From Fermentimonas sp. (lineage in GTDB: Bacteria; Bacteroidota; Bacteroidia; Bacteroidales; Dysgonomonadaceae), in contig JBFLFV010000010.1 of assembly GCA_041859795.1 (NCBI GenBank), positions 19,648 to 83,647 of the forward strand: DNA of 64,000 bases, in the 5' to 3' direction. Of this stretch, positions 19,313-42,713 are shown in pieces. The notes under the pieces are model-generated. The model searched no databases. It saw only the letters and a program-made list of their open reading frames with translations, and was not told the origin of the DNA. The number at the start of each line of letters is the position of its first letter. Positions within the stretch are counted from its first letter, which is position 1. Both the position numbers and the translations under genes were made by a program.

Positions 19313-19906
19313 TCATATTTCAAAGAGGAAAGGTTTGTTCAGCAACCGATAATACACATCGACTATCGATGCGTTTGCAAAGAGGGTGTCCTTTTCTTTT
19401 TCCATGCCGTATGCATCATGAATATGTCCGAAAAGATGGTATCGGGGACGGATATCCATTACGGTTTGTAACAAATCACGATCGCCATAATGGATATTGG
19501 CGGAGTTGTCCAGTATGCCATAGGGAGGCTGGTGCGTCATTAGGATATCCGTATCATCGGGTATTTTTTGAAAGCTTTCATCGTAGTTCCCCGAGATTAT
19601 ATCTTCCATGAACAGAGGCATTCCATGGAATTTAAGGCCGTCAATCACCACACTTGAATTGTACAGATAAAAACAGTTCTCGGGTAAACCCTCTATATTT
19701 GCTTCATGGAGGCAGTTATCATGGTTGCCAGCAATAAAAACTTTGTAGGTATAGGGCAGCGACGAAAACCATTGGATAAAATCGAACGCTTCATCTTCTG
19801 AACCGGCAAAGGATATGTCCCCGGAGTGCACGATAACGTCGGCTCGCGGCATATCGCTCAATTGATGATGCTGACCATGGGTATCGGAAATGTGAAGAAT
19901 GCGCAT
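19313..19906 (-). CDS. Calcineurin-like metallophosphoesterase (MPPED-like)
   Basis: ISDTH, HSGDIS, IAGNHD, THQPP and FGHIH metal motifs. Confidence 0.93.
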   Translation of the reverse strand: MRILHISDTHGQHHQLSDMPRADVIVHSGDISFAGSEDEAFDFIQWFSSLPYTYKVFIAGNHDNCLHEANIEGLPENCFYLYNSSVVIDGLKFHGMPLFMEDIISGNYDESFQKIPDDTDILMTHQPPYGILDNSANIHYGDRDLLQTVMDIRPRYHLFGHIHDAYGMEKEKDTLFANASIVDVYYRLLNKPFLFEI

Positions 19907-19909
19907 GGA

Positions 19910-20428
19910 CTATACCGATTCATTGGAACGATGAAACAAAGGAGCGGATAAAGCGATTCGGGCACAGGCCTCCGCATCGGCCAATGCATGATGGTGGTTG
20001 TCTAGGTTATACCCAATATGCTTTGCCACAGTCTTCAATTGATAATTCTGTAAGCCTGGAAAATGCTTCTTTGCCGCTCGACAGGTGCAATGAAATGTAT
20101 AATCGGGATACTCTATTCCGTATAGATCGTGTACGGCCTTTAAACAACCGGAATCGAACGGACTATTATGAGCAATCAGTGGCAAATCCTTTAGTTTAGG
20201 CGAAATCTCCTGCCAAACCTCCGGGAATTCAGCTTCATCAAGCGTGTCGTGATAGGTAAGACCGTGAATCCTGGTCGCCCAGAAGGAGTAAAAATTAGGG
20301 CGAGGACGCACGAGCCGGTAAAACTTATCGACTATTATTTCATTCTCCACAATAACGACTCCAACACTGCAAATGCTGGAGCGATTGTGATTGGCCGTCT
20401 CAAAATCAATCGCCGCGAAAGATTTCAT
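19910..20428 (-). CDS. DEDDh 3'-5' exonuclease
   Basis: AIDFETAN, IAHNSPFD, HHALADAEAC. Confidence 0.93.
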   Translation of the reverse strand: MKSFAAIDFETANHNRSSICSVGVVIVENEIIVDKFYRLVRPRPNFYSFWATRIHGLTYHDTLDEAEFPEVWQEISPKLKDLPLIAHNSPFDSGCLKAVHDLYGIEYPDYTFHCTCRAAKKHFPGLQNYQLKTVAKHIGYNLDNHHHALADAEACARIALSAPLFHRSNESV

Positions 20429-20496: not shown

Positions 20497-21582
20497 TATG
20501 ATTATCCGCAATAGTTCCTATTATAAATTCTTGATTTGAAATCGGGTGTGTAAGTGAGGGCAGCTACCAGAAGCCGGTCAAACTGCTTCTCACCGAAATA
20601 ACGCCTGTTGAACTTGTAACAGAACTGATTTAGATAATATTGTAAGTATTCGGGTTTCATTTTGTAATATACGCCCAATAATTGTCGCTTGGCATTACTT
20701 ATTGCCGTATGGACCCAGGGCAGGACACTGGGGAGCTCCTTGGGTGGGATGACAGATGCCGTATGCGAATGGACATGTTCTTTTAATTGTGTATAGGAAG
20801 TCGAATCATCGGTGGTTAAATCCGCCGTGTTCTCGATGTGTTCTTTGACATTCTTTGTGATTGTATCGGACTTCAAATCGTTGATTACTTTCATTTTCAG
20901 GTATCTGACCTTCTTTGGTTTCTTGCCTGCTTTTGGACTTTCAACTGTTTTGCTTTCAGCCATTACCAATACTTTGGTCTTTTTCTGACTGCCGCGGCCG
21001 CGTTTCAACGGTTTATCCCTGTCTTCAAGGGATATTTCCGTGGAAAAAGAAGGCATCGTCCAGCTCGATGGCACCTTCAAGTGTGTACTCATCATCACGC
21101 TTGCCCATCACGTCACGCAGCTTATTGACCATTTCCCATATCGGCTGATAGCGCTTGTGTCCTAATTGGCGTTGCAGTTCAGCCGTAGAGAAGGAACCCT
21201 TGGTGGCTGTGAGCAGGTGCATGGCGACGAACCAGTAACGGTAAGGCAGGTTGGAGTGTTGCATGACAGTGCCTGAACGCAGGGTTTGGCGGGCATGGCA
21301 ACTCTTGCATTCATAGGCTTGTTTGTTTTGAAGCCAGTAATGTTCTTTACAATTACAATGACGACAAGTTATACCCATTTGCTCTCTTAGTTCTTTGAAT
21401 TTTTTCCGACAGGACTCCTCATCGGGGTAATTTATGGCAAAATCCAGGATATTCATAGCTCGAATTATTTTATTGTTGATGATGTAAATATAATGAATAT
21501 CAATGAATTGTGCAAACATTTTTGAAACTTATTTATAACTTTTTCTCGCTAAATTCTTTAGGAAGAACTGCGGATAATCATA
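20497..21582 (-). mobile_element. IS1595 family element
   Basis: 14-bp IR TATGATTATCCGCA; 8-bp TSD TAAAGTTT at 20489-20496 and 21583-21590. Confidence 0.9.
20502..21458 (-). pseudogene. IS1595 transposase, +1 frameshift in a T run near 21045
   Basis: MNILDFAINYPDEESC...CRHC...CKSC Zn ribbon; ELDDAFF continues as STE...KRGRGSQKK, LTTDD and YLNQFCYKFNRR in another frame. Confidence 0.88.
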
Positions 21583-22563: not shown

Positions 22564-22582
22564 TACGCCAAATAATGGCGCA
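22564..22582. promoter_or_regulatory. Candidate WYL1 operator TACGCC-N7-GGCGCA
   Basis: CGCCA AATAA TGGCG inverted repeat between a terminator and the WYL1 start. Confidence 0.55.
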
Positions 22583-22600
22583 TCTAAAACAAAATACAAT

Positions 22601-22626
22601 AAAACTGCCCGGAATTGGGCAGCTTT
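22601..22626 (-). terminator. Intrinsic terminator after the zinc-finger gene
   Basis: AAAACTGCCC-GGAATT-GGGCAGCTTT hairpin followed by a U-rich tract on the minus strand. Confidence 0.7.
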
Positions 22627-22642
22627 AGGCCTTACGGCAAAG

Positions 22643-22894
22643 TTATAACGCGGGGGAGTGCTTCCCTTTAGCAAACCCATTGGGATGCCTGGGGCAATTA
22701 TTCACGGTCAATGCCGGCAAATCTTTGAAAGTAAAACCGCAATACTTACACGTGTATTTACTTTTCTCGCTGCCCTCGTACAACTTGTGCTTGCCTTTAC
22801 CAAGCCCGTCAGGATGTCTGGGACAATTATTCGAGGACAAACCCATGGCCGATAAAAATTTCCGACCACAATATTCACAATAATAATTTGCCAT
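22643..22894 (-). CDS. 83-aa protein with two tandem putative zinc-finger repeats
   Basis: Two repeats YxCxYCGxxFxxxxxLxxNNCPRHPxGxxKGKH. Conservation at the protein level with variable spacer residues supports coding. Confidence 0.85.
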   Translation of the reverse strand: MANYYCEYCGRKFLSAMGLSSNNCPRHPDGLGKGKHKLYEGSEKSKYTCKYCGFTFKDLPALTVNNCPRHPNGFAKGKHSPAL

Positions 22895-22928: not shown

Positions 22929-23651
22929 TCACTCCAACGACATATAGTCTTTCACTGCATTGATAATATAATCGCAATATTCTATACGGGTCTCACCTGC
23001 TCTTCTCCATCCATTATTAGGATGATAAGTATCAATCAATAACTTATTTTGGAATTGATAGACCGGGAGCCATTCCGCGATTTTTTCCTTACCCTTAAAA
23101 TAATCCGAAAAGTATCCGAATGTTCCACCAAAAATCATTACATCAGGATCAATAATCTCAATTTGCTCATGTAATAATGTTTTGTACTTATTGTAAAATC
23201 TTTTAATATCATTCATATTCGCGTTGCTTCCACCCGCGTATTTTTTCACGTTAATGTGGGCAATACAGGGCATATATTTCAATACTTCTTGGGCATTTCC
23301 ATTCATTTCTAGAATATCACTCATATTCTTATTTTCAAAAATCCCATAAGTAGCATAGGCGACCGCACGCCATGTAGGTGCCCATAAACGATCCATGACA
23401 TCGGGATTGTCATTATCATTTAATGAGGCGATATTGGGTCTCATATCAGGCAAAGAATCATCATCGCTATGCGCTTCCTTCAAAATCCAAAGAATTTTTA
23501 CCGGAGCCTCCAAATATTTCGATGCATTTACGATTCCATCACGAACAAATGACATTCTTTCTCCCGTTTCTGTATTGATTGGAAGTTCAATAGCATGTTC
23601 AAACCTTACCAGTTGTTCTTCGATTTTTTTCTCGAGCTGTTCCTGTTTCAT
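22929..23651 (-). CDS. Hypothetical protein, probable uracil-DNA-glycosylase-like fold
   Basis: KILWILKE, AHINVKK, EQIEIIDPDVMIFGGT and DTYHP resemble UDG-superfamily motifs. Confidence 0.6.
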   Translation of the reverse strand: MKQEQLEKKIEEQLVRFEHAIELPINTETGERMSFVRDGIVNASKYLEAPVKILWILKEAHSDDDSLPDMRPNIASLNDNDNPDVMDRLWAPTWRAVAYATYGIFENKNMSDILEMNGNAQEVLKYMPCIAHINVKKYAGGSNANMNDIKRFYNKYKTLLHEQIEIIDPDVMIFGGTFGYFSDYFKGKEKIAEWLPVYQFQNKLLIDTYHPNNGWRRAGETRIEYCDYIINAVKDYMSLE

Positions 23652-24774: not shown

Positions 24775-25476
24775 TCAACAAAAACCTATTTTTTTCTATC
24801 ATTCTTATAGAATCCCATTTTCACAATAGTACCGTATTCTTTTAAATGATGGCATTGCACCATTCAAGATTGAGTCAACGGTACATTTACGAGCTATATT
24901 TTCTATTTGACCCCCACTTAAATCTTTGGTTCCGGCTAACTCTTGACTCTCTTCTTCGGATAGTGACGTTAGCATCATTTTCCAAATACTTTCTTTAGCC
25001 TCTAAGCTGGGTTTATCAAATTCAATCTTGTACAAAAATCTCCGATCGAATGCCTTATCCACATTTCGAGTAAGGTTAGTGGTTGCAATCAAGATACCTT
25101 TCAGATTCTCTATTTCCTGCAACAGGATATTTTGAATCGTATTCTCTAATTGGTTAATATGGCTGTTTCCTACCTCCCTTCGGCTTCCAATTATCGCGTC
25201 CGCCTCATTAAAAAGTAAGATAGGAGCTACCTCTTTGGCATCAACGTGGTACCGATAGGTGTCGAAAATCTGTTTGATTCTCTTTTCACTTTCTCCATAC
25301 CACATGCTTTTTATCTCGGAGATATCCACACCGTTGTGATTGATAAATCGATGGCAAAAATAAAGCAATAAAGGAAAGATATTTTGCTCATCACACACCT
25401 CCGCGTATTTTTGAAGTTGAATACAAAAAGGTAAAGAGGGGTTGTCTTCTACCAAAGAGCGCAATTCCATTCGCAA
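24775..25476 (-). pseudogene. Decayed AAA+ ATPase paralog (Walker A deleted)
   Basis: Retains KSMWYGESEK, LLFNEADA, LIATTN and DKAFDRRF but lacks GxxGxGKT. A KKIGF tail lies beyond the in-frame stops. Confidence 0.75.
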
Positions 25477-25547: not shown

Positions 25548-26450
25548 TTACTGATAAGATGATAATGCCGTTTCCAAAGTCTTTTTTATATCTGCAATCA
25601 AACTTTCAGGCTCAATCACTTTCACATTTTCTCCAAAAAAGAGAATTTCCATAATAAAATCATGCGTAATATAGAGTTTCAACTTTATCCGCAATTCGTC
25701 GTCGTTGTCGGTCAGCACCTCCTGCGTTTCGTGCAGCGGCAGCGATTTGATATATCTTCCTTGAAAAGGAGTGAATGAAAGGATAACATCTTCCGGCTCC
25801 TGCTCTTCGTAAGGGCTTATAACTCCAAAGCAATGACGGAAATACCCATTCAAATCAAAATCGACGGGAAAACGAAAGTGTGTTTTGCTTATTTCCAAAT
25901 TCGAGAGGCGGTCGAGTCCGAAAGTCTTTATTTTGCCGTCTTTCAAATCCTTGCCGAGGACGTACCAACGATTCCGAAATTCTTTCAGCGCATAAGGCTC
26001 GATAGTTCGGTTGCCTGTTTCTTCTTCCCAATATTTCAGGTGGTCAAAACTTATAACAAACCTGTTTTGAACGGCACGAAGCAAGCCGTACAGATTTTCA
26101 AGGCCTTGGGGTTTCCGCTTTTCGAACTGTATATGTTCCGAAACGCGGGAAGCAAGATTCATTGCGTTCAACATATCGAAAGCCTCGAAAAGGCGTTCGT
26201 TTAATTCGGTTTTTTCATCCGACACAATTCGATAGACTTTTGTCGAACGATCGTACTCAATCTCGATATTGTAGAGCGAAGCAATATCCTGCACATCACG
26301 TTGGAAGGTCCGCAGCGAAATATTAAAATTATATTCGTGTATTTCTGATTGCAATTTTAAATATGTCGCTATTTTCTCAAAATTCGAAGGCGTCTTCCGC
26401 AGTTTTTCTATGATCAAACTTTGACGGAATAATGTTTCTCTTTTGGACAT
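25548..26450 (-). CDS. WYL-domain transcriptional regulator 2 (wHTH-WYL-WCX)
   Basis: ISLRTFQRDVQDI HTH, IEPYALKEFRNRWYVLG, TFGLDR, GENVKVIEP. Start is probably MSKRE at 26450. Confidence 0.93.
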   Translation of the reverse strand: MSKRETLFRQSLIIEKLRKTPSNFEKIATYLKLQSEIHEYNFNISLRTFQRDVQDIASLYNIEIEYDRSTKVYRIVSDEKTELNERLFEAFDMLNAMNLASRVSEHIQFEKRKPQGLENLYGLLRAVQNRFVISFDHLKYWEEETGNRTIEPYALKEFRNRWYVLGKDLKDGKIKTFGLDRLSNLEISKTHFRFPVDFDLNGYFRHCFGVISPYEEQEPEDVILSFTPFQGRYIKSLPLHETQEVLTDNDDELRIKLKLYITHDFIMEILFFGENVKVIEPESLIADIKKTLETALSSYQ

Positions 26451-26478
26451 ACCGTGTTGGTTTTTAGCTATTGAAATA

Positions 26479-26520
26479 CGAAGATAAAACTTTACAGCGA
26501 TAAAACATGTCGCCGTAAAG
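26479..26520 (-). promoter_or_regulatory. WYL2 promoter -7 box and palindromic operator candidate
   Basis: TATCTTCG (-7-like, 26479-26486) and the inverted repeat CTTTACAGCGA-N9-TCGCCGTAAAG (core CGAT-N7-GTCG). Confidence 0.65.
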
Positions 26521-26528
26521 TTCATTTT

Positions 26529-28202
26529 TCAAAAACCTATCTTTTTTCTTGTTTTTAAGTTGATTTTTTCTGCATCGCAAAGTCCGCATAATTCACCAAA
26601 AGTAGGATTCTCGCCCGTTAAGATGTTATGAACAGTATATTTTCGGGTTATATTTTCAATTTGTCCTCCGCTGAAATCGTAAGTTTCCGACAGTGTTGTT
26701 AATTCCTCGTCTTTCAATTCGGGAAGCATCGTTTTCCAAATCGCCTGTTTTGCTTCAAGCGAAGGCTTTCCAAATTCTATTTTATAAATAAATCTGCGTT
26801 CAAAAGCCTTGTCTAAATTCTGTATGAGATTGGTTGTGGCGATAAGAATCCCATCTAAATTTTCCATTTCCTGCAAAATAATATTCTGAATGGAATTTTC
26901 CATTTTATCGACAGCCCTGCTTGCGCCTTCGTTGCGGATACCCAACACCGCATCAGCCTCGTTAAACAGAAGTATGGGCGCAATTTCCGATTGTCTTACA
27001 TGCTCTCGGTAAGACTCAAAAGACTCTTTGATATTCTTTTCGCTTTCTCCTACCCACATGCTTTTTATGCGTGAAACATCTATCGGAAAAATATCGCGTC
27101 CCGTTTGTCGTGCAAGCTGATATACCGTTTCAGTTTTACCAGTGCCGGGAGTGCCGTAAAATAAACAGGCAAAACCTTGTCTCATGCCATTTTCTGCAAG
27201 ACGGTTACGGATGTCGTCAAAATTTTCCTGTTTCAGCAAATTGCTTAATTGCTCAATCTGTTTTCGCTCGTTTTCGTTGTAAAACAATTTTTTATCGGCA
27301 ATCGAATCCTGTAAAATAAAATATTTTTTATTCAATGGTTTTCTCCAGTCAATATTCATCTCTGAAAGTAATTCTTTTTTTGCAAAATCAGTCAGTTTGA
27401 AACTTTCTACGTCTATAAACCCATCATTGTAGGCATTTTCTATCAATTTATAGTCAAATAAGGCATTGTATTGTTTTTGCAACGAATTATAGAGACGGCT
27501 GCCCGCATATCTTTCAAAAAAATCTTCAAAATCATAAAGACCTATATTGTCGTCTTTATCGCGCACAAAGAGCAGACAGAAACGTAGTAGCAGCAACTTG
27601 TCCATGCAACCGAGATTATACGCTTCCGTTTTTTCAACAAAAGTCAATTGAGAATTATCTTCAAACAAGGAGTCTATCTCATCTATTAAACCCATGTATG
27701 TCAATTCATTCTCTTTTCTTTCATCAAATAATTTTTCCAATTCCAGAAAAAAATCAGCAAGTGAAATATTTTTTTTATTGGCGGGTATATATTCCTTATC
27801 CTCTATAAACGAGTCGAGAACCTCTCGAGGAACACGGAAATAGGTTTGTTCGCCGTTTCGTCTGCTGCAACGAATCAAGCGTCTCTTCTCCAACACATCA
27901 ATATCACTCATATATTGTAGCAGTTTGATAGTACGGCATCCGATAGTTTTAGAAATTTCGCTGATATAAATACTATGATCCTCGCTTTTATCTATAAAAT
28001 GTGATAACAACACAACCTGCATATCATTTAGTTGTAAGCGCTTTTTAAGCAGATCGATATGCGGTTTTGCCTTTTCAAAAAACTCATTATTTAATTCTGA
28101 GTTTTCTGAAAGCTCCACTATTTTTTCAATATGAGCCAAAACACCAAGATTCATTCCGTCCGTTGCGTCAGACGCTTCTTTTGTTACGTTCAATTGTATC
28201 AT
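26529..28202 (-). CDS. AAA+ ATPase (single Cdc48/SpoVK-like module) with a ~300-aa N-terminal region
   Basis: LFYGTPGTGKT Walker A, LLFNEADA Walker B, LIATTNL sensor, LDKAFERRF arginine finger, terminal KKIGF. Confidence 0.93.
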   Translation of the reverse strand: MIQLNVTKEASDATDGMNLGVLAHIEKIVELSENSELNNEFFEKAKPHIDLLKKRLQLNDMQVVLLSHFIDKSEDHSIYISEISKTIGCRTIKLLQYMSDIDVLEKRRLIRCSRRNGEQTYFRVPREVLDSFIEDKEYIPANKKNISLADFFLELEKLFDERKENELTYMGLIDEIDSLFEDNSQLTFVEKTEAYNLGCMDKLLLLRFCLLFVRDKDDNIGLYDFEDFFERYAGSRLYNSLQKQYNALFDYKLIENAYNDGFIDVESFKLTDFAKKELLSEMNIDWRKPLNKKYFILQDSIADKKLFYNENERKQIEQLSNLLKQENFDDIRNRLAENGMRQGFACLFYGTPGTGKTETVYQLARQTGRDIFPIDVSRIKSMWVGESEKNIKESFESYREHVRQSEIAPILLFNEADAVLGIRNEGASRAVDKMENSIQNIILQEMENLDGILIATTNLIQNLDKAFERRFIYKIEFGKPSLEAKQAIWKTMLPELKDEELTTLSETYDFSGGQIENITRKYTVHNILTGENPTFGELCGLCDAEKINLKTRKKIGF

Positions 28203-28240
28203 AATTGTATTATTTTTTGTGATGATTCAACTTTTGCAAG

Positions 28241-28553
28241 CTACATAAACCCGCTTGTAGTAGGTTTTGAAATCGGCCATTGTTCCGGTGCACTAGTACC
28301 AAAACAGATTTGAGCGTTTGGTCATTCTTTTGCGGCATTTCTTGCCGTATCATTTTTACCTTATGCAGATGTTACCCCAAAAGGCTTGTTCTTTTTTTCT
28401 CTTTTTTAGCAAGCAGATTAAAATCTAAATATAATCAGCATAATGTATAACCTTGAAAACGAAAAAAGAACCAGCACAACTTTGTAATGATTGCCGTACA
28501 TTACATTGTCAGCATTAAGAAAACCGAATTTTTAATCCAAAATGTCAAAGAGC
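28241..28553 (-). ncRNA. Candidate structured leader RNA/ncRNA upstream of the AAA ATPase
   Basis: Nested stems (28384-28413 with 28452-28475, enclosing 28413-28439), hairpins at 28333-28347 and 28241-28260, boxA-like GCTCTTTGACA at 28543-28553, no credible ORF. Confidence 0.4.
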
Positions 28554-28778
28554 GTATGAAACTGAAAATTCTCTCTATGGCTTTTCACTTAAAGTAAAAA
28601 GTTGCTTACTTCTGAAAGTATTATCGCTTCTTTGTGGTGCAACATATTTTTTTGGCTTGTATTTCAAACATATAACTTCTGAATATCAGAGACTTGCCAA
28701 ATTTTAAACATTGCTTTTTTGTAGTAAAAAAGCGAGTTTTGATACCTGCGAAAGTTGAGTTATTTTTGTTTGAGAATA

Positions 28779-28819
28779 CAAAGATGGGGAGAGAGGACGA
28801 CAATCTGTGTCGCTGTAAA
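28779..28819 (-). promoter_or_regulatory. Second copy of the -7 box plus CGAC-N7-GTCG operator candidate
   Basis: CATCTTTG (28779-28786) and CGAC-AATCTGT-GTCGCTGTAAA, with the same 11-bp spacing as at 26479-26520. Confidence 0.6.
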
Positions 28820-28822
28820 TAA

Positions 28823-28850
28823 AAACTGCAACTTTTTTGAGTTGCAGTTT
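28823..28850 (-). terminator. Intrinsic terminator
   Basis: AAACTGCAACT-N6-AGTTGCAGTTT hairpin downstream of the DUF262-like remnant. Confidence 0.7.
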
Positions 28851-32834: not shown

Positions 32835-34916
32835 TTAGGAGGTTTTTCGTAACCAATTTAAAGGAAGCAGTTCAGCAAGATCCATTGTGTAGTCCTGATC
32901 ATAATCGTGGATATGACTCAAAACATGTACCATCCAGTCACGGAAGTTCACTTCTGCAGCCTTACAGCATCCAAGTAAAGAGTAGATAACTGCAGCATCT
33001 TCTGCAGCGTCATGATTTCCGCAAAACAGGTAGTTCTTCCTGCCAAGCGCCAGACCTCTCAGACTATTTTCGGCAAGGTTATTATCTATATGGTACCTTC
33101 CATCCAGATGATAACGACTTAAACGGTGATAGATGTCATAACAGTATTTTATCGCCTTGCCTATCGGGCTTTTTGGTAACACTTTACCGTATTCATTTAC
33201 CAGCCATTTTTCAAAGACAACCATAATGGGGTAAGCGTGTGTCTCTCGCAGCTTGGCTCTCTCCTGGTAAGAAAGATTCTTATCATCAGCCTCTCTTTCT
33301 ACTTCGTATAGAAGTCCGATTTGCTCAAGAGCATATTCAGCTCTTTCCCTATCATTTTTGAGCGACTCCTCAAACTTTCTTCTTGCATGAGCCCAACAAC
33401 CAAGGGGTAGTACATCTTTTTTGTATTCGTACATTTGGTATACACTGTACCCGTCTGTCTGCATTGCACCTCGGAAGTCTTTTAAAAGTGATAATGCTAC
33501 CTTCTGTGCTCTTGAGCCTTGATCATAATGGAAGAAGACCTGCTTGTCCATCGCAGAGCGCACCATCCACATGTATCCATTTACGGTTTTATGCTTCTCG
33601 TTATTTATTATGGGAACGGTGGTTTCATCCACCTGGATATAATCCGTGTCAAGAACTATTTCTTTAAGTCGGTAATATAATGGTCTCAACAAGTCGGCAG
33701 TATCCTTGAACCAATCGTTCACCGTTGGTGGTGGAAGATTTACACCCACCTGCTTCATCATCTGTATCTGACGATAAAAAGGAAGGTGGTTCACGTACTT
33801 GTTTATCATCAGTTCCGCCAAGAGTGATGCTCCGGCATAACTGCGTGCAATAGGCTGATATTTTGCAGGAAGTGGTGCAGTTATAATAGAAGAAGAGTTC
33901 TGTGAATCCTGTTCAGTTTTGCTTTTTACAACATATTTATGACGTATAATCTTCCTTACCCAGCATCTTCCGGGTTCATACTCCATAACTTCAGTAATCT
34001 CGGGCTCTAACTCTGTCAATGTATCAGAGTTGTCTTTTACCTCATCGGGATAAAGATGCTCTTCAACCCGGGGAAGATCTTCAGGTAAAGGTTTACGTAC
34101 AGGTTTTCTTTTTACACGCTCTTTTACTCGCCTTTCTTTGAAAGTTTCTATATCTGCTTTGGCTGCTTCTGCAAGTTCTTTTTCTTCAGGTAAAAGGTCT
34201 ATACCTTCAAAGTCGATCATGCGTTGCCTAGGATCTTCTTTTATAAAGCGTTCACTGGACTTGCCCCATATCCGACGTCTTAAGTAAGCAACCTGCTTTT
34301 CTAAATCAAGGATCTTTTCGTCTTTTTTGGATATGGTTTCCTCATACGAGGTTTTTAATGCATCAACATCCGTGCGATCTTCAAGCTTACCCTTCAGAAG
34401 CATGTTCTCCTGATATAAACGGTCGCATTTCTCCAAGAGGAGTTCTAAAAGCTCGTTAGTATTTTCTTTGTTTTCTTGCATCATTAACCTGTTAGATAAC
34501 GAGAGTAAAGATACAAAAACGGTGCAATATATGCAAGTAAAAAAAGAGACTAAAAACCGTTTGTTTATGCGCCTTTCCATCGTTTTTTTATATTTACATT
34601 TTTCAGTTTCAATACCCTGTACCATCAGCATAAGTTTCTGCCAAGAGAAGGGGTGCGATCTTCCATTTTCATCAAAAGAGGGTAATGTAAAATTACCTTT
34701 TTCAAGCTTCATATAATAAATCACAAGCCCACCATGTTCCATGTGCAGAGCCTTCAAACTGGTGCAATGACGGTTCAGAAAGATGAAAACATCTCCGCTG
34801 CGTACATTCTGTCCCATATGATCCGTGACCAATCCGCTTAATGTGTAAAAACCTTTGCGCATATCAGTAGGCTGTGGATAAAGCCAGTAACGCATCGAGT
34901 TGTTAAGGTTAAACAT
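32835..34916 (-). CDS. IS66 TnpB-TnpC in-frame fusion ORF
   Basis: TnpB motifs followed by full TnpC (DETT, TDGY, CWAHARR, DNNLAEN). Three extra homopolymer bases relative to copy 1 bypass the tnpB stop. Confidence 0.85.
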   Translation of the reverse strand: MFNLNNSMRYWLYPQPTDMRKGFYTLSGLVTDHMGQNVRSGDVFIFLNRHCTSLKALHMEHGGLVIYYMKLEKGNFTLPSFDENGRSHPFSWQKLMLMVQGIETEKCKYKKTMERRINKRFLVSFFTCIYCTVFVSLLSLSNRLMMQENKENTNELLELLLEKCDRLYQENMLLKGKLEDRTDVDALKTSYEETISKKDEKILDLEKQVAYLRRRIWGKSSERFIKEDPRQRMIDFEGIDLLPEEKELAEAAKADIETFKERRVKERVKRKPVRKPLPEDLPRVEEHLYPDEVKDNSDTLTELEPEITEVMEYEPGRCWVRKIIRHKYVVKSKTEQDSQNSSSIITAPLPAKYQPIARSYAGASLLAELMINKYVNHLPFYRQIQMMKQVGVNLPPPTVNDWFKDTADLLRPLYYRLKEIVLDTDYIQVDETTVPIINNEKHKTVNGYMWMVRSAMDKQVFFHYDQGSRAQKVALSLLKDFRGAMQTDGYSVYQMYEYKKDVLPLGCWAHARRKFEESLKNDRERAEYALEQIGLLYEVEREADDKNLSYQERAKLRETHAYPIMVVFEKWLVNEYGKVLPKSPIGKAIKYCYDIYHRLSRYHLDGRYHIDNNLAENSLRGLALGRKNYLFCGNHDAAEDAAVIYSLLGCCKAAEVNFRDWMVHVLSHIHDYDQDYTMDLAELLPLNWLRKTS

Positions 34917-40985: not shown

Positions 40986-42713
40986 ATGGCAAACTTTTAT
41001 ACAGATACACCGCAATTTCGTCATTATCTTAGTCATCCTTTAATGAAAAGAATAGTGGAATTGAGAGAAAAAAACTATACTGAAAGTGAAATATATGATT
41101 ATGCTCCCATTGATTTTGAAGATGCAATGGATAGTTATGATAAGATATTGGAGGTTGTAGGTGAAATATGCTCAGAGATAATTGATCCTAATGCAGAGGA
41201 GGTAGATCATATTGGGCCTACTGTGGATAATGGACGTGTAACGTATGCTGACAAAACTCAAGAGAATCTTGATGTACTTACTAAAGCCGGATTAATGGGA
41301 ATGCGTTTTGGTCGTAAATATGGTGGACTTAACTTCTCAATGGTCCCATATATGATGAGTGCCGACATAGTAAGTCGTGCCGACGCCAGCTTTCAAAATA
41401 TTTGGATGTTACAAGATTGCGGCGAAACAATTTATGAGTTTGGAAATGAAGAGCAGAAAAACGAATATATTCCAAGAGTTGTAAATGGCGAGACAATGTC
41501 AATGGATTTGACAGAACCAGATGCAGGATCAGATCTTCAAGCTGTAATGTTAAAAGCAACATATAATGAAAAAGAAGATCAGTGGTATCTAAATGGAGTA
41601 AAACGTTTCATCACAAATGGTGACGCTGATATTCACCTTGTACTTGCAAGATCAGAAGAAGGCACTAAAGACGCACGTGGTTTATCAATGTTTGTCTACG
41701 ACAAGAATAACGGTGGTGTTAATGTTCGTCGTATCGAAAATAAAATGGGTATAAAGGGTGCTCCAACTTGTGAGTTAGTATACAAAAATGCAAAAGCTGA
41801 ATTAGTTGGAAGTCGTCGTTTAGGTTTGATACGATACGTAATGTCACTTATGAATGGTGCTCGACTCGGCATTATAGCACAATCAGTAGGTATTTCAGAG
41901 GCAGCAACACGCGAAGCTCATAAATATGCAATAGAGCGACGTCAATTTGGCAAAGCAATTATTAACTTCCCTCCTGTTTATGAAATGCTAGCAAATATGA
42001 GAGCAAAAACTGATGCATCTCGTACTTTGTTATATGAAACTAGTCGTTTCGTTGACATGTACAAAACACTTGAAGATATTTCAAAAGAACGCAAACTCAC
42101 ACCCGAAGAAAGAGCTGAAATGAAATATTACTCAAAATTAGCAGATGCATTTACTCCGCTTGGAAAAGGAATGACAAGTGAGTATGCCAATCAAAATGCA
42201 TACGATGCTATACAAATTCATGGCGGTTCGGGATATATGAAAGATTATAAATGTGAGCGTTTATATCGTGATGCACGTATTACAAATATTTATGAAGGGA
42301 CAACTCAGCTTCAAGTAATTGCAGCAATACGTCATGTAACTACCGGAACATATCTGCAGAGAATTAAAGAATATGAAGCAATGTTAGTTTTGCCGGAGCT
42401 AGAACCACTTAAGCGTTCTCTATCAGAAATGACTCAAATGTACGAACAGCTTGTGGAAATTGTAACTTCTCCTAAAAATGAGGAATATCTTGATTTTCAC
42501 TCACGTCGTCTTGTTGAATGTGCAGCACATATTATTGGTGGACATCTACTGTTACAGGATGCAAATCATAATCAAGACCTTTTCCGTCGCAGCGCTGAGG
42601 TTTATATTCATTATGGTCAGATTGAAGTAATCAAAAACTATAATTTTATCTCTGAATCACGGTTGGAAGATATTGCTTATTATAAACCAAGTGATTTCTC
42701 TGAAGTAAAATAA
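40986..42713 (+). CDS. Acyl-CoA dehydrogenase
   Basis: LTEPDAGSD, GVKRFITNG, QIHGGSGY, YEGTTQLQ; in an operon with etfBA. Confidence 0.95.
   Translation: MANFYTDTPQFRHYLSHPLMKRIVELREKNYTESEIYDYAPIDFEDAMDSYDKILEVVGEICSEIIDPNAEEVDHIGPTVDNGRVTYADKTQENLDVLTKAGLMGMRFGRKYGGLNFSMVPYMMSADIVSRADASFQNIWMLQDCGETIYEFGNEEQKNEYIPRVVNGETMSMDLTEPDAGSDLQAVMLKATYNEKEDQWYLNGVKRFITNGDADIHLVLARSEEGTKDARGLSMFVYDKNNGGVNVRRIENKMGIKGAPTCELVYKNAKAELVGSRRLGLIRYVMSLMNGARLGIIAQSVGISEAATREAHKYAIERRQFGKAIINFPPVYEMLANMRAKTDASRTLLYETSRFVDMYKTLEDISKERKLTPEERAEMKYYSKLADAFTPLGKGMTSEYANQNAYDAIQIHGGSGYMKDYKCERLYRDARITNIYEGTTQLQVIAAIRHVTTGTYLQRIKEYEAMLVLPELEPLKRSLSEMTQMYEQLVEIVTSPKNEEYLDFHSRRLVECAAHIIGGHLLLQDANHNQDLFRRSAEVYIHYGQIEVIKNYNFISESRLEDIAYYKPSDFSEVK

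Follow-up and report, generated by a model that had tools for sequence, protein, structure and literature searches.

An operator at a fixed distance from the −7 box in predicted WYL-regulated promoters of Fermentimonas (Bacteroidota)

Introduction

WYL regulators are common in Bacteroidota. The closest described counterpart of the regulator considered here, WYL2, is DriD of Caulobacter crescentus, a homodimeric activator which is switched on by single-stranded DNA (ssDNA). The published DriD site reads ATACGAC(N7)GTCGTAT; CGNC-N7-GNCG is its conserved part, in which R37 and R41 of the protein read two guanines and E40 reads C1 (PMC10853764). Six residues of DriD are key to ssDNA binding: Y168, R176, R178, Y192, R204 and R207 (PMC9186387). 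[quoted passage not shown] Here we describe a similar arrangement in Fermentimonas sp.: within a stretch of 64,000 nucleotides (the window; positions 19,648 to 83,647 of contig JBFLFV010000010.1, GenBank assembly GCA_041859795.1) a 43-bp pattern occurs twice, once upstream of the gene for WYL2 and once upstream of a gene for an AAA ATPase. An earlier note on this DNA, made from its letters alone, had pointed out the resemblance and given the DriD core as CGAC-N7-GTCG, in agreement with the published site.

A second activator, DdaA of Acinetobacter baylyi (2026), responds to DNA damage; its sites are CGACAATATGTGTCG and CGTCATGTTATGTCG, and its residues R47 and R51 are essential (PMC13010146). 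PafBC of mycobacteria, an activator also triggered by ssDNA, works by sigma adaptation at RecA-NDp promoters, where its site borders the −10 element on the upstream side at a fixed spacing and replaces the −35 element. BrxR and CapW are repressors of BREX and CBASS systems, respectively; they share the domain order of these regulators and sit beside their targets in defence-like islands, and CapW, according to the title of a PDB entry, binds ssDNA. For a WYL regulator of Bacteroidota, no description of an operator was found in the literature.

Methods

The 43-bp pattern under study is TAC[GA]AAGAT[AG]-N11-CGA[TC]-N7-GTCGC[CT]GTAAA. Its two occurrences are called S1 (26477–26519) and S2 (28777–28819), and both are read on the minus strand, as are the genes. 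Chance occurrence was gauged with 100 shuffles; a short pattern, TTTACRGCGAC-N7-RTCG, was run against the 2.65-Mb genome with up to one mismatch.

For comparison between genomes, a composite site was defined as CGNC-N7-GNCG followed, after 11 nt, by TAnnTTTG, with up to one mismatch allowed in the scan of orthologue loci. The WYL2-orthologue set comprised 40 extended loci with orthologues 45–60% identical to WYL2. The order-wide set, 401 genomes of the same order, was searched for the exact 34-nt pattern, with the reversed pattern as control. Negative-control loci were those of 80 AAA homologues (45–55% identical), 662 kb of DNA holding WYL1-like regulators. Spacing was counted in a census of exact palindromes with an exact box 0–30 nt downstream. 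A position-weight matrix (PWM) was trained on 44 composite sites, the weakest of which scores 17.5 bits. An AlphaFold2 model of WYL2 (pLDDT 75.8) was used for a Foldseek search against the PDB.

Results

Two operator–box modules in the window

On balance it is probable that S1 and S2 are binding sites of a WYL2 dimer in Bacteroidetes sigma-A promoters which WYL2 activates, a prediction made from sequence. The features on which it draws are these.

28812–28798, minus strand: S2 operator core, CGACACAGATTGTCG, a perfect CGNC-N7-GNCG palindrome of 15 bp
28786–28779, minus strand: S2 −7 box, CATCTTTG, TAnnTTTG with one mismatch; the spacer of 11 nt is 28787–28797
26512–26498, minus strand: S1 operator core, CGACATGTTTTATCG, with A at the G12 position, one mismatch to CGNC-N7-GNCG
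26486–26479, minus strand: S1 −7 box, TATCTTCG, TAnnTTTG with one mismatch; the spacer of 11 nt is 26487–26497
25548–26450, minus strand: WYL2, 300 residues, a regulator of winged helix-turn-helix (wHTH)–linker–WYL–WCX type, presumed to bind S1 and S2
26529–28202, minus strand: AAA ATPase of type 1, 557 residues, the first gene downstream of S2

Both matches to the 43-bp pattern lie exactly where they were first placed. They are the only ones in the window, even at three mismatches, and none of the 100 shuffles produced a match; with the short pattern, too, the whole genome yielded S1 and S2 only. On the minus strand S2 reads TTTACA-GCGAC-ACAGATT-GTCGT, 11 nt and CATCTTTG, and S1 reads TTTACG-GCGAC-ATGTTTT-ATCGC, 11 nt and TATCTTCG, so that the claim of a palindromic operator exactly 11 bp upstream of a Bacteroidetes −7 box holds at both sites. 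The S1 core sits within a longer palindrome of 29 bp (26491–26519), in which nine of the eleven arm positions are paired. A third match to CGAC-N7-GTCG, at 41363, lies within a coding region without a box and was dismissed.

The earlier note had placed S1 upstream of WYL2, and this stands with one correction: the gene starts at the ATG at 26450 and not at 26525, the longer open reading frame to 26525 not being the gene. With this start S1 is intergenic: it falls within the 78 nt that separate the stop of the AAA gene (26529) from the WYL2 ATG, and its −7 box ends 28 nt ahead of that ATG.

In Bacteroidetes sigma-A promoters, with their −33 TTTG and −7 TAnnTTTG elements, a −33 TTG is optimally placed about 19 nt upstream of the −7 box. 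The TTG is absent at this canonical spacing; operator positions 4–6, the invariant C-A-Y, occupy the place, so that no −33 TTG is possible there. Neither S1 nor S2 has a TTG at any spacing of 18–25 nt from the −7 box.

Conservation of the module

The scan of the 40 WYL2-orthologue loci found 44 composite sites in 29 of them. The sites precede WYL2 orthologues (51–75 nt before the ATG), AAA–WYL2 operons and other neighbouring genes, which supports the earlier proposal that WYL2 controls both itself and the AAA transcript. Boxes at orthologous sites stand 17–40 nt before start codons; in canonical AAA–WYL2 operons the AAA ATG follows the operator-linked −7 box by 17–19 nt. The 44 sites give the family consensus R-CGNCA-Y-N3-TTGNCG-Y, and several positions that had played no part in site selection turn out to be conserved: A5 and T11 (each 43/44), T10 (36/44), a purine at position 0 (41/44) and a pyrimidine at position 16 (40/44).

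The distance between operator and box is strictly kept. Exact palindromes paired with an exact box are spaced by exactly 11 bp in 24 of 27 cases, with unrelated spacer sequences, and no such pair at 11 bp occurs in the 662 kb of WYL1-type control loci. Order-wide, the exact 34-nt pattern was matched 75 times, in 49 of the 401 genomes, and the reversed pattern not once. More than 100 natural sites keep the 11-bp spacing with unrelated spacers.

WYL2 orthologues are widespread in the order, and the sites go with them: 43 of the 49 genomes that carry a site also carry a WYL2-like gene, and among the other 352 genomes 117 do (Fisher p = 2e-13). For at least 43 of the 75 sites such a gene is found no more than 5 kb away, regulators 30–40% identical to WYL2 included. 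Loci without an AAA gene still carry sites, and the WYL2-like gene is the only constant neighbour. Outside the class of the window's genome, plasmids of Hymenobacter hold two loci with perfect operators and the box 11 nt away, and plasmids of Chryseobacterium two loci with variant operators. The homologues of the AAA ATPase, by comparison, had to be rejected as a guide to the motif: their 80 loci pair with WYL1-like regulators and not with WYL2, and the motif is absent from them.

A further link between regulator and site is provided by natural variants. In two closely related genomes the regulator carries Q50H in its recognition helix, and the operators read GGAC-N7-GTCC with the box at 11 nt; at L098 and L118, where the site lies at −75 and −581 relative to the WYL start, an S-E-R-T-F-H-R-D regulator (Q50H) goes with the operator cGGACACACTTTGTCCg. 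That Q50H is accompanied by a symmetric change of the outermost operator positions represents one evolutionary event and is thus no more than suggestive of WYL2 reading the site. In a separate case, a regulator with Q50K (L149) pairs with a TGCC-N7-GGCC operator.

Two side observations concern the operator family. T10 is kept although the symmetry of the palindrome predicts a purine, which makes the operator asymmetric; the result is a TTG in promoter orientation, the only conserved one, whose distance of 14 nt from the −7 box is too short for a −33 element. In one genome (G386), near-identical sites lie 145–157 nt from the ends of three contigs (C43, C65 and C89), an indication that the module is part of a repeated element in that genome.

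The WYL2 protein

Pfam recognises a WYL domain (E = 1e-12) and a WCX domain (E = 2e-10) in WYL2, and the AlphaFold2 model has an N-terminal wHTH followed by helices and a WYL barrel. The best eight PDB matches of the model are all DriD, over the full length (E = 2e-13); PafBC comes next, and then CapW and BrxR (ranks 16–31). Residues R47 and R51 do not vary in 21 and in 17 orthologues, and lie within the motif S45-x-R47-T-F-Q50-R51-D52. HMMER aligns only the WYL–WCX part of WYL2 to DriD, and in that alignment DriD Y168, R176, R178, Y192, R204 and R207 fall on WYL2 Y140, R148, I150, Y163, K175 and G178.

Sites elsewhere in the genome

A genome-wide motif scan, as the earlier note had advised, was run with the composite PWM: S2 came first with 28.6 bits and S1 second with 20.4 bits, and the next match, at 14.4 bits, is under the training minimum. 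With an operator-only PWM, S2 (21.2 bits) was again best, S1 was fifth in the genome, and the second place (21.1 bits) fell to a further site, S3. Of the five top-scoring operator sequences in the 2.65-Mb genome, three thus fall within 6.3 kb of one another.

22565–22581, minus strand: S3, GCGCCATTATTTGGCGT, upstream of WYL1; agrees with the operator consensus wherever that is conserved

The −7-like boxes of S3 are 5 or 15 nt away, and there is no box at 11 bp. WYL1 itself is without an equivalent of R51 (its helix reads L-R-T-F-H-N-H-R), and WYL1 orthologues show other palindromes. The idea that WYL1 and WYL2 use orthogonal operators, CGCC as against CGAC, was rejected: position 3 is free, being A in 22, C in 10 and T in 12 of the 44 sites.

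The whole-genome PWM scan revealed no genome-wide DNA-damage regulon (recA, repair genes), and the sites are local, two or three in number. Where other genomes have remote sites, the genes behind them are those for AAA, RmuC, GmrSD and exonuclease proteins, and recA is not among them. Other genes linked to the module are those for a type-2 AAA protein, an AAA-M41 peptidase, a DnaB_C-like ATPase and a homologue of the 240-residue protein of the present cluster. Defence-like genes found at sites or in their loci encode GmrSD/DUF262, a PD-(D/E)XK nuclease, a dynamin-like GTPase, an IetA-like AAA protein and a DEDDh exonuclease. PADLOC detected no complete known defence system, only an IetA likeness at the level of the AAA domain and generic WYL models.

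Leader and neighbouring genes

Further features delimit the two predicted transcripts.

28823–28850, minus strand: terminator hairpin of the upstream open reading frame of 127 residues, ending 3 nt before the S2 module
28203–28778, minus strand: non-coding leader, about 575 nt long, which separates the AAA gene from the S2 promoter; peculiar to this genome
22600–22627, minus strand: first terminator-like hairpin downstream of S1

The hairpin at 28823–28850 is predicted to insulate S2 from upstream transcription. The leader behind S2 holds a second, perfect −7 box (TATGTTTG, 28665–28672) and an AT-rich hairpin with 15-nt arms (28706–28740), about 40–70 nt past the S2 box. It belongs to no Rfam family, has no homologue beyond roughly 100 nt in 60 relatives and is single-copy in the genome, with no copy elsewhere and no repeat. 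No remnant was found in it of type-2 AAA genes or of the genes usual upstream of type-1 AAA genes. Its fold z-score of −2.4 does not by itself make the leader an RNA gene. The spacer of S2 is C-rich, like the promoters of type-2 AAA genes, whereas the gene behind it is a type-1 AAA gene, which makes a rearrangement plausible, if unproven.

The AAA ATPase has a classical AAA domain, and its likeness to IetA is at domain level only. AAA genes of the type found in the window (L030, L035, L042–L045, L051 and others) often follow, at about 75 nt and on the same strand, a gene for a protein of about 201 residues; by eye, this protein, which has a GGQ motif, looks like a release-factor or peptidyl-tRNA-hydrolase domain.

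Downstream of WYL2 on the minus strand come a fragment of a second AAA gene and then genes for proteins of 229, 73, 240 and 83 residues; these are followed by a terminator-like hairpin, WYL1, an IS1595 element, a DEDDh exonuclease gene and a phosphoesterase gene. As the first hairpin downstream of S1 lies only at 22600–22627, the S1 transcript may run from WYL2 through the gene for the 83-residue zinc-ribbon protein (25548 down to 22643).

Some of these genes have counterparts at other loci. The AAA fragment (24805–25476, 223 residues) is without the Walker A part and is 61% identical to residues 374–543 of the intact AAA protein. The 83-residue double zinc-ribbon gene (22643–22894) has homologues directly behind the module in three other genomes, where a DEDDh (RNase_T) exonuclease gene follows; in the window the exonuclease gene (19910–20428) is separated from the zinc-ribbon gene by WYL1 and the IS1595 insertion (20502–21519). 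The 240-residue protein (22929–23651) has no Pfam match; a homologue, judged by eye, lies in genome L173, 68 nt behind an exact site. Elsewhere in the window, a frame of 693 residues (32835–34916) fuses a TnpB_IS66 (Orf2) domain and an IS66 DDE transposase domain, which are usually encoded by separate genes.

Discussion

Proposed mechanism

In the proposed mechanism the palindrome R-CGNCA-Y-N3-TTGNCG-Y, whose end is 11 bp away from the TA of the −7 box, would have its centre at about −31 and would replace the −33 element. WYL2 carrying a nucleic-acid ligand in its WYL domain, for which ssDNA is the leading candidate, would dock there and recruit RNA polymerase, by analogy with DriD and DdaA. 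Two units would be switched on: the leader–AAA transcript from S2, and WYL2 from S1, the latter probably with the genes behind it up to the terminator at 22600–22627. The motif, its spacing, its uniqueness in the genome and its conservation beside WYL2-like genes across Bacteroidota are in silico findings; WYL2 as the binder, activation as its mode and the identity of the ligand are what we infer. Activation is probably the mode, and it is favoured over repression because of the single-base spacing, the missing −33 element, an operator that never lies over the −7 box, and the ranking of folds.

The same register appears to hold for DriD. In DriD promoters as printed, GNCG stands 11 nt ahead of CAATCT, CAAGGT or CAAGCC, and an engineered TTGACA at box positions 4–9 also gives 11 nt if the spacer is 17 bp. 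By our own reading, which could be off by one, the distance from the DriD operator to the −10 element is thus about 11 bp. The earlier suggestion that operator geometry is conserved across phyla is supported by both observations, the fixed 11 bp here and the fixed distance of the DriD boxes.

Several points weigh against this account. At the DNA level, each −7 box has one mismatch to TAnnTTTG, and the right half-site of S1 has A at G12, which is invariant across the 44 sites and whose equivalent in DriD is contacted by an arginine. The AAA start codon is 577 nt away from S2, as against 17–19 nt in canonical loci, so that the coupling of S2 to the AAA gene is uncertain in this genome. At the protein level, the model of WYL2 is of moderate quality, with linker residues 86–115 below a pLDDT of 50, and HMMER gave no alignment of the WYL2 wHTH to DriD with either the full or the N-terminal profile; the equation of R47 and R51 with DriD R37 and R41 therefore rests on the shared motif and on the numbering of DdaA. 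Among the six key ssDNA-binding residues of DriD, three are identical in WYL2, one is replaced conservatively and two are lost. Finally, the neighbours (GmrSD/DUF262, nucleases, AAA) resemble defence genes, among which the WYL repressors BrxR and CapW are usually found.

Activation or repression

This last point leads to the strongest of the rival explanations, which retains the operator and its binder and reverses the effect. WYL2, like BrxR or CapW, would sit at −38 to −24 and keep RNA polymerase out until it was released by a ligand that arises on phage infection or DNA damage. We regard this as rather unlikely, if deserving of serious attention. The targets in this genome and in others resemble genes for defence or for nucleic-acid stress; WYL2 has its fold in common with CapW and BrxR, and CapW too binds ssDNA. 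In addition, the Bacteroidetes −7 box holds most of the promoter information, and a promoter without a −33 element could work alone. A repressor, however, needs overlap and not single-base precision, and the spacing is held at 11 bp over more than 100 sites, nor does the operator ever cover the −7 box or the start site. The activators DriD, PafBC and SiwR have exactly this layout just upstream of −10, and DriD and PafBC outrank CapW and BrxR in the fold search.

Recognition by another factor, an unlikely alternative

It is far less probable that the element is recognised by some other factor, an alternative sigma factor or one encoded nearby, with which WYL2 merely travels along. Such a case might be made from a single Hymenobacter locus, where a sigma-factor gene lies between the site and the WYL gene. 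The palindrome, however, has two-fold symmetry and a half-site spacing of one turn, as is typical of a dimeric helix-turn-helix protein, and the downstream box is the housekeeping −7 motif. AAA and other genes come and go while the WYL2-like gene alone remains a constant neighbour; the homologous folds of DriD and DdaA bind the same core; and the Q50H variant has its symmetric operator change.

That S1 and S2 resemble each other as functionless products of a recent duplication of a promoter segment within the cluster has in its favour an extra flank, TTTAC-R-G, which the two share and which is not conserved in other genomes, and is contradicted, to the point of being scarcely credible, by N7 and N11 stretches without similarity next to family-conserved positions that all match and by the retention of the module in dozens of unrelated genomes.

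Comparison with described WYL systems

Among described systems, that of DriD is the closest to WYL2. The two share the CGNC-N7-GNCG core with an AT-rich centre, a box in place of the absent −35 or −33 element at a fixed distance from a −10-type element, and a site in the promoter region of the regulator itself; they also share the wHTH–linker–WYL–WCX fold, for which DriD is the best PDB match, and a putative R-T-x-x-R recognition motif. They differ in that WYL2 is only about 17% identical to DriD and belongs to Bacteroidota, with −7 promoters of the TAnnTTTG type; the operator here is made asymmetric by T10, the extra and promoter-oriented base of a TTG; and the regulon is local and aimed at AAA and nuclease modules rather than at a cell-division inhibitor.

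The sites of DdaA fit a CGNCA-N5-TGNCG core, without T10, and its essential R47 and R51 bear the same numbers as R47 and R51 of WYL2. DdaA, however, controls recA, ssb, uvrA and aciT genome-wide, whereas no such regulon is seen here, and its aciT site lies about 160 bp upstream of aciT. PafBC differs in being a heterodimer or a fusion, in having a site which is not palindromic and in not binding DNA without RNA polymerase. BrxR and CapW rank lower by fold and are repressors for which no fixed single-base distance to the −10 element is reported, and none of their systems is present here. Taken with the conserved module, these comparisons give in silico support to WYL2 and its operator as a Bacteroidota member of the DriD/DdaA type of WYL regulator–operator pairs.

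Significance

The analysis defines a precise operator and a strict rule for its spacing, and it lists over 100 natural sites along with the families of target genes. The operator and promoter geometry of DriD and DdaA is extended from Proteobacteria to a phylum whose promoters are built differently, and the recurrence of one geometry in divergent phyla argues for an ancient, rigid contact between regulator and RNA polymerase. Within the cluster, the 83-residue zinc-ribbon protein, the 240-residue protein and the AAA ATPase would come under a common regulatory signal. The module is also a candidate for a compact inducible promoter in laboratory strains of Bacteroides.

More broadly, and tentatively, WYL2-like proteins may be Bacteroidota-wide ssDNA-sensing activators which keep the 11-bp register of DriD with RNA polymerase despite a divergent sigma-A and a different −7/−33 code, and which switch on mobile, modular genes for nucleic-acid stress or defence (AAA, DEDDh exonuclease with zinc-ribbon microprotein, RmuC and GmrSD). 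If this is true, gut Bacteroidales would possess a LexA-independent alarm circuit for DNA damage or phage.

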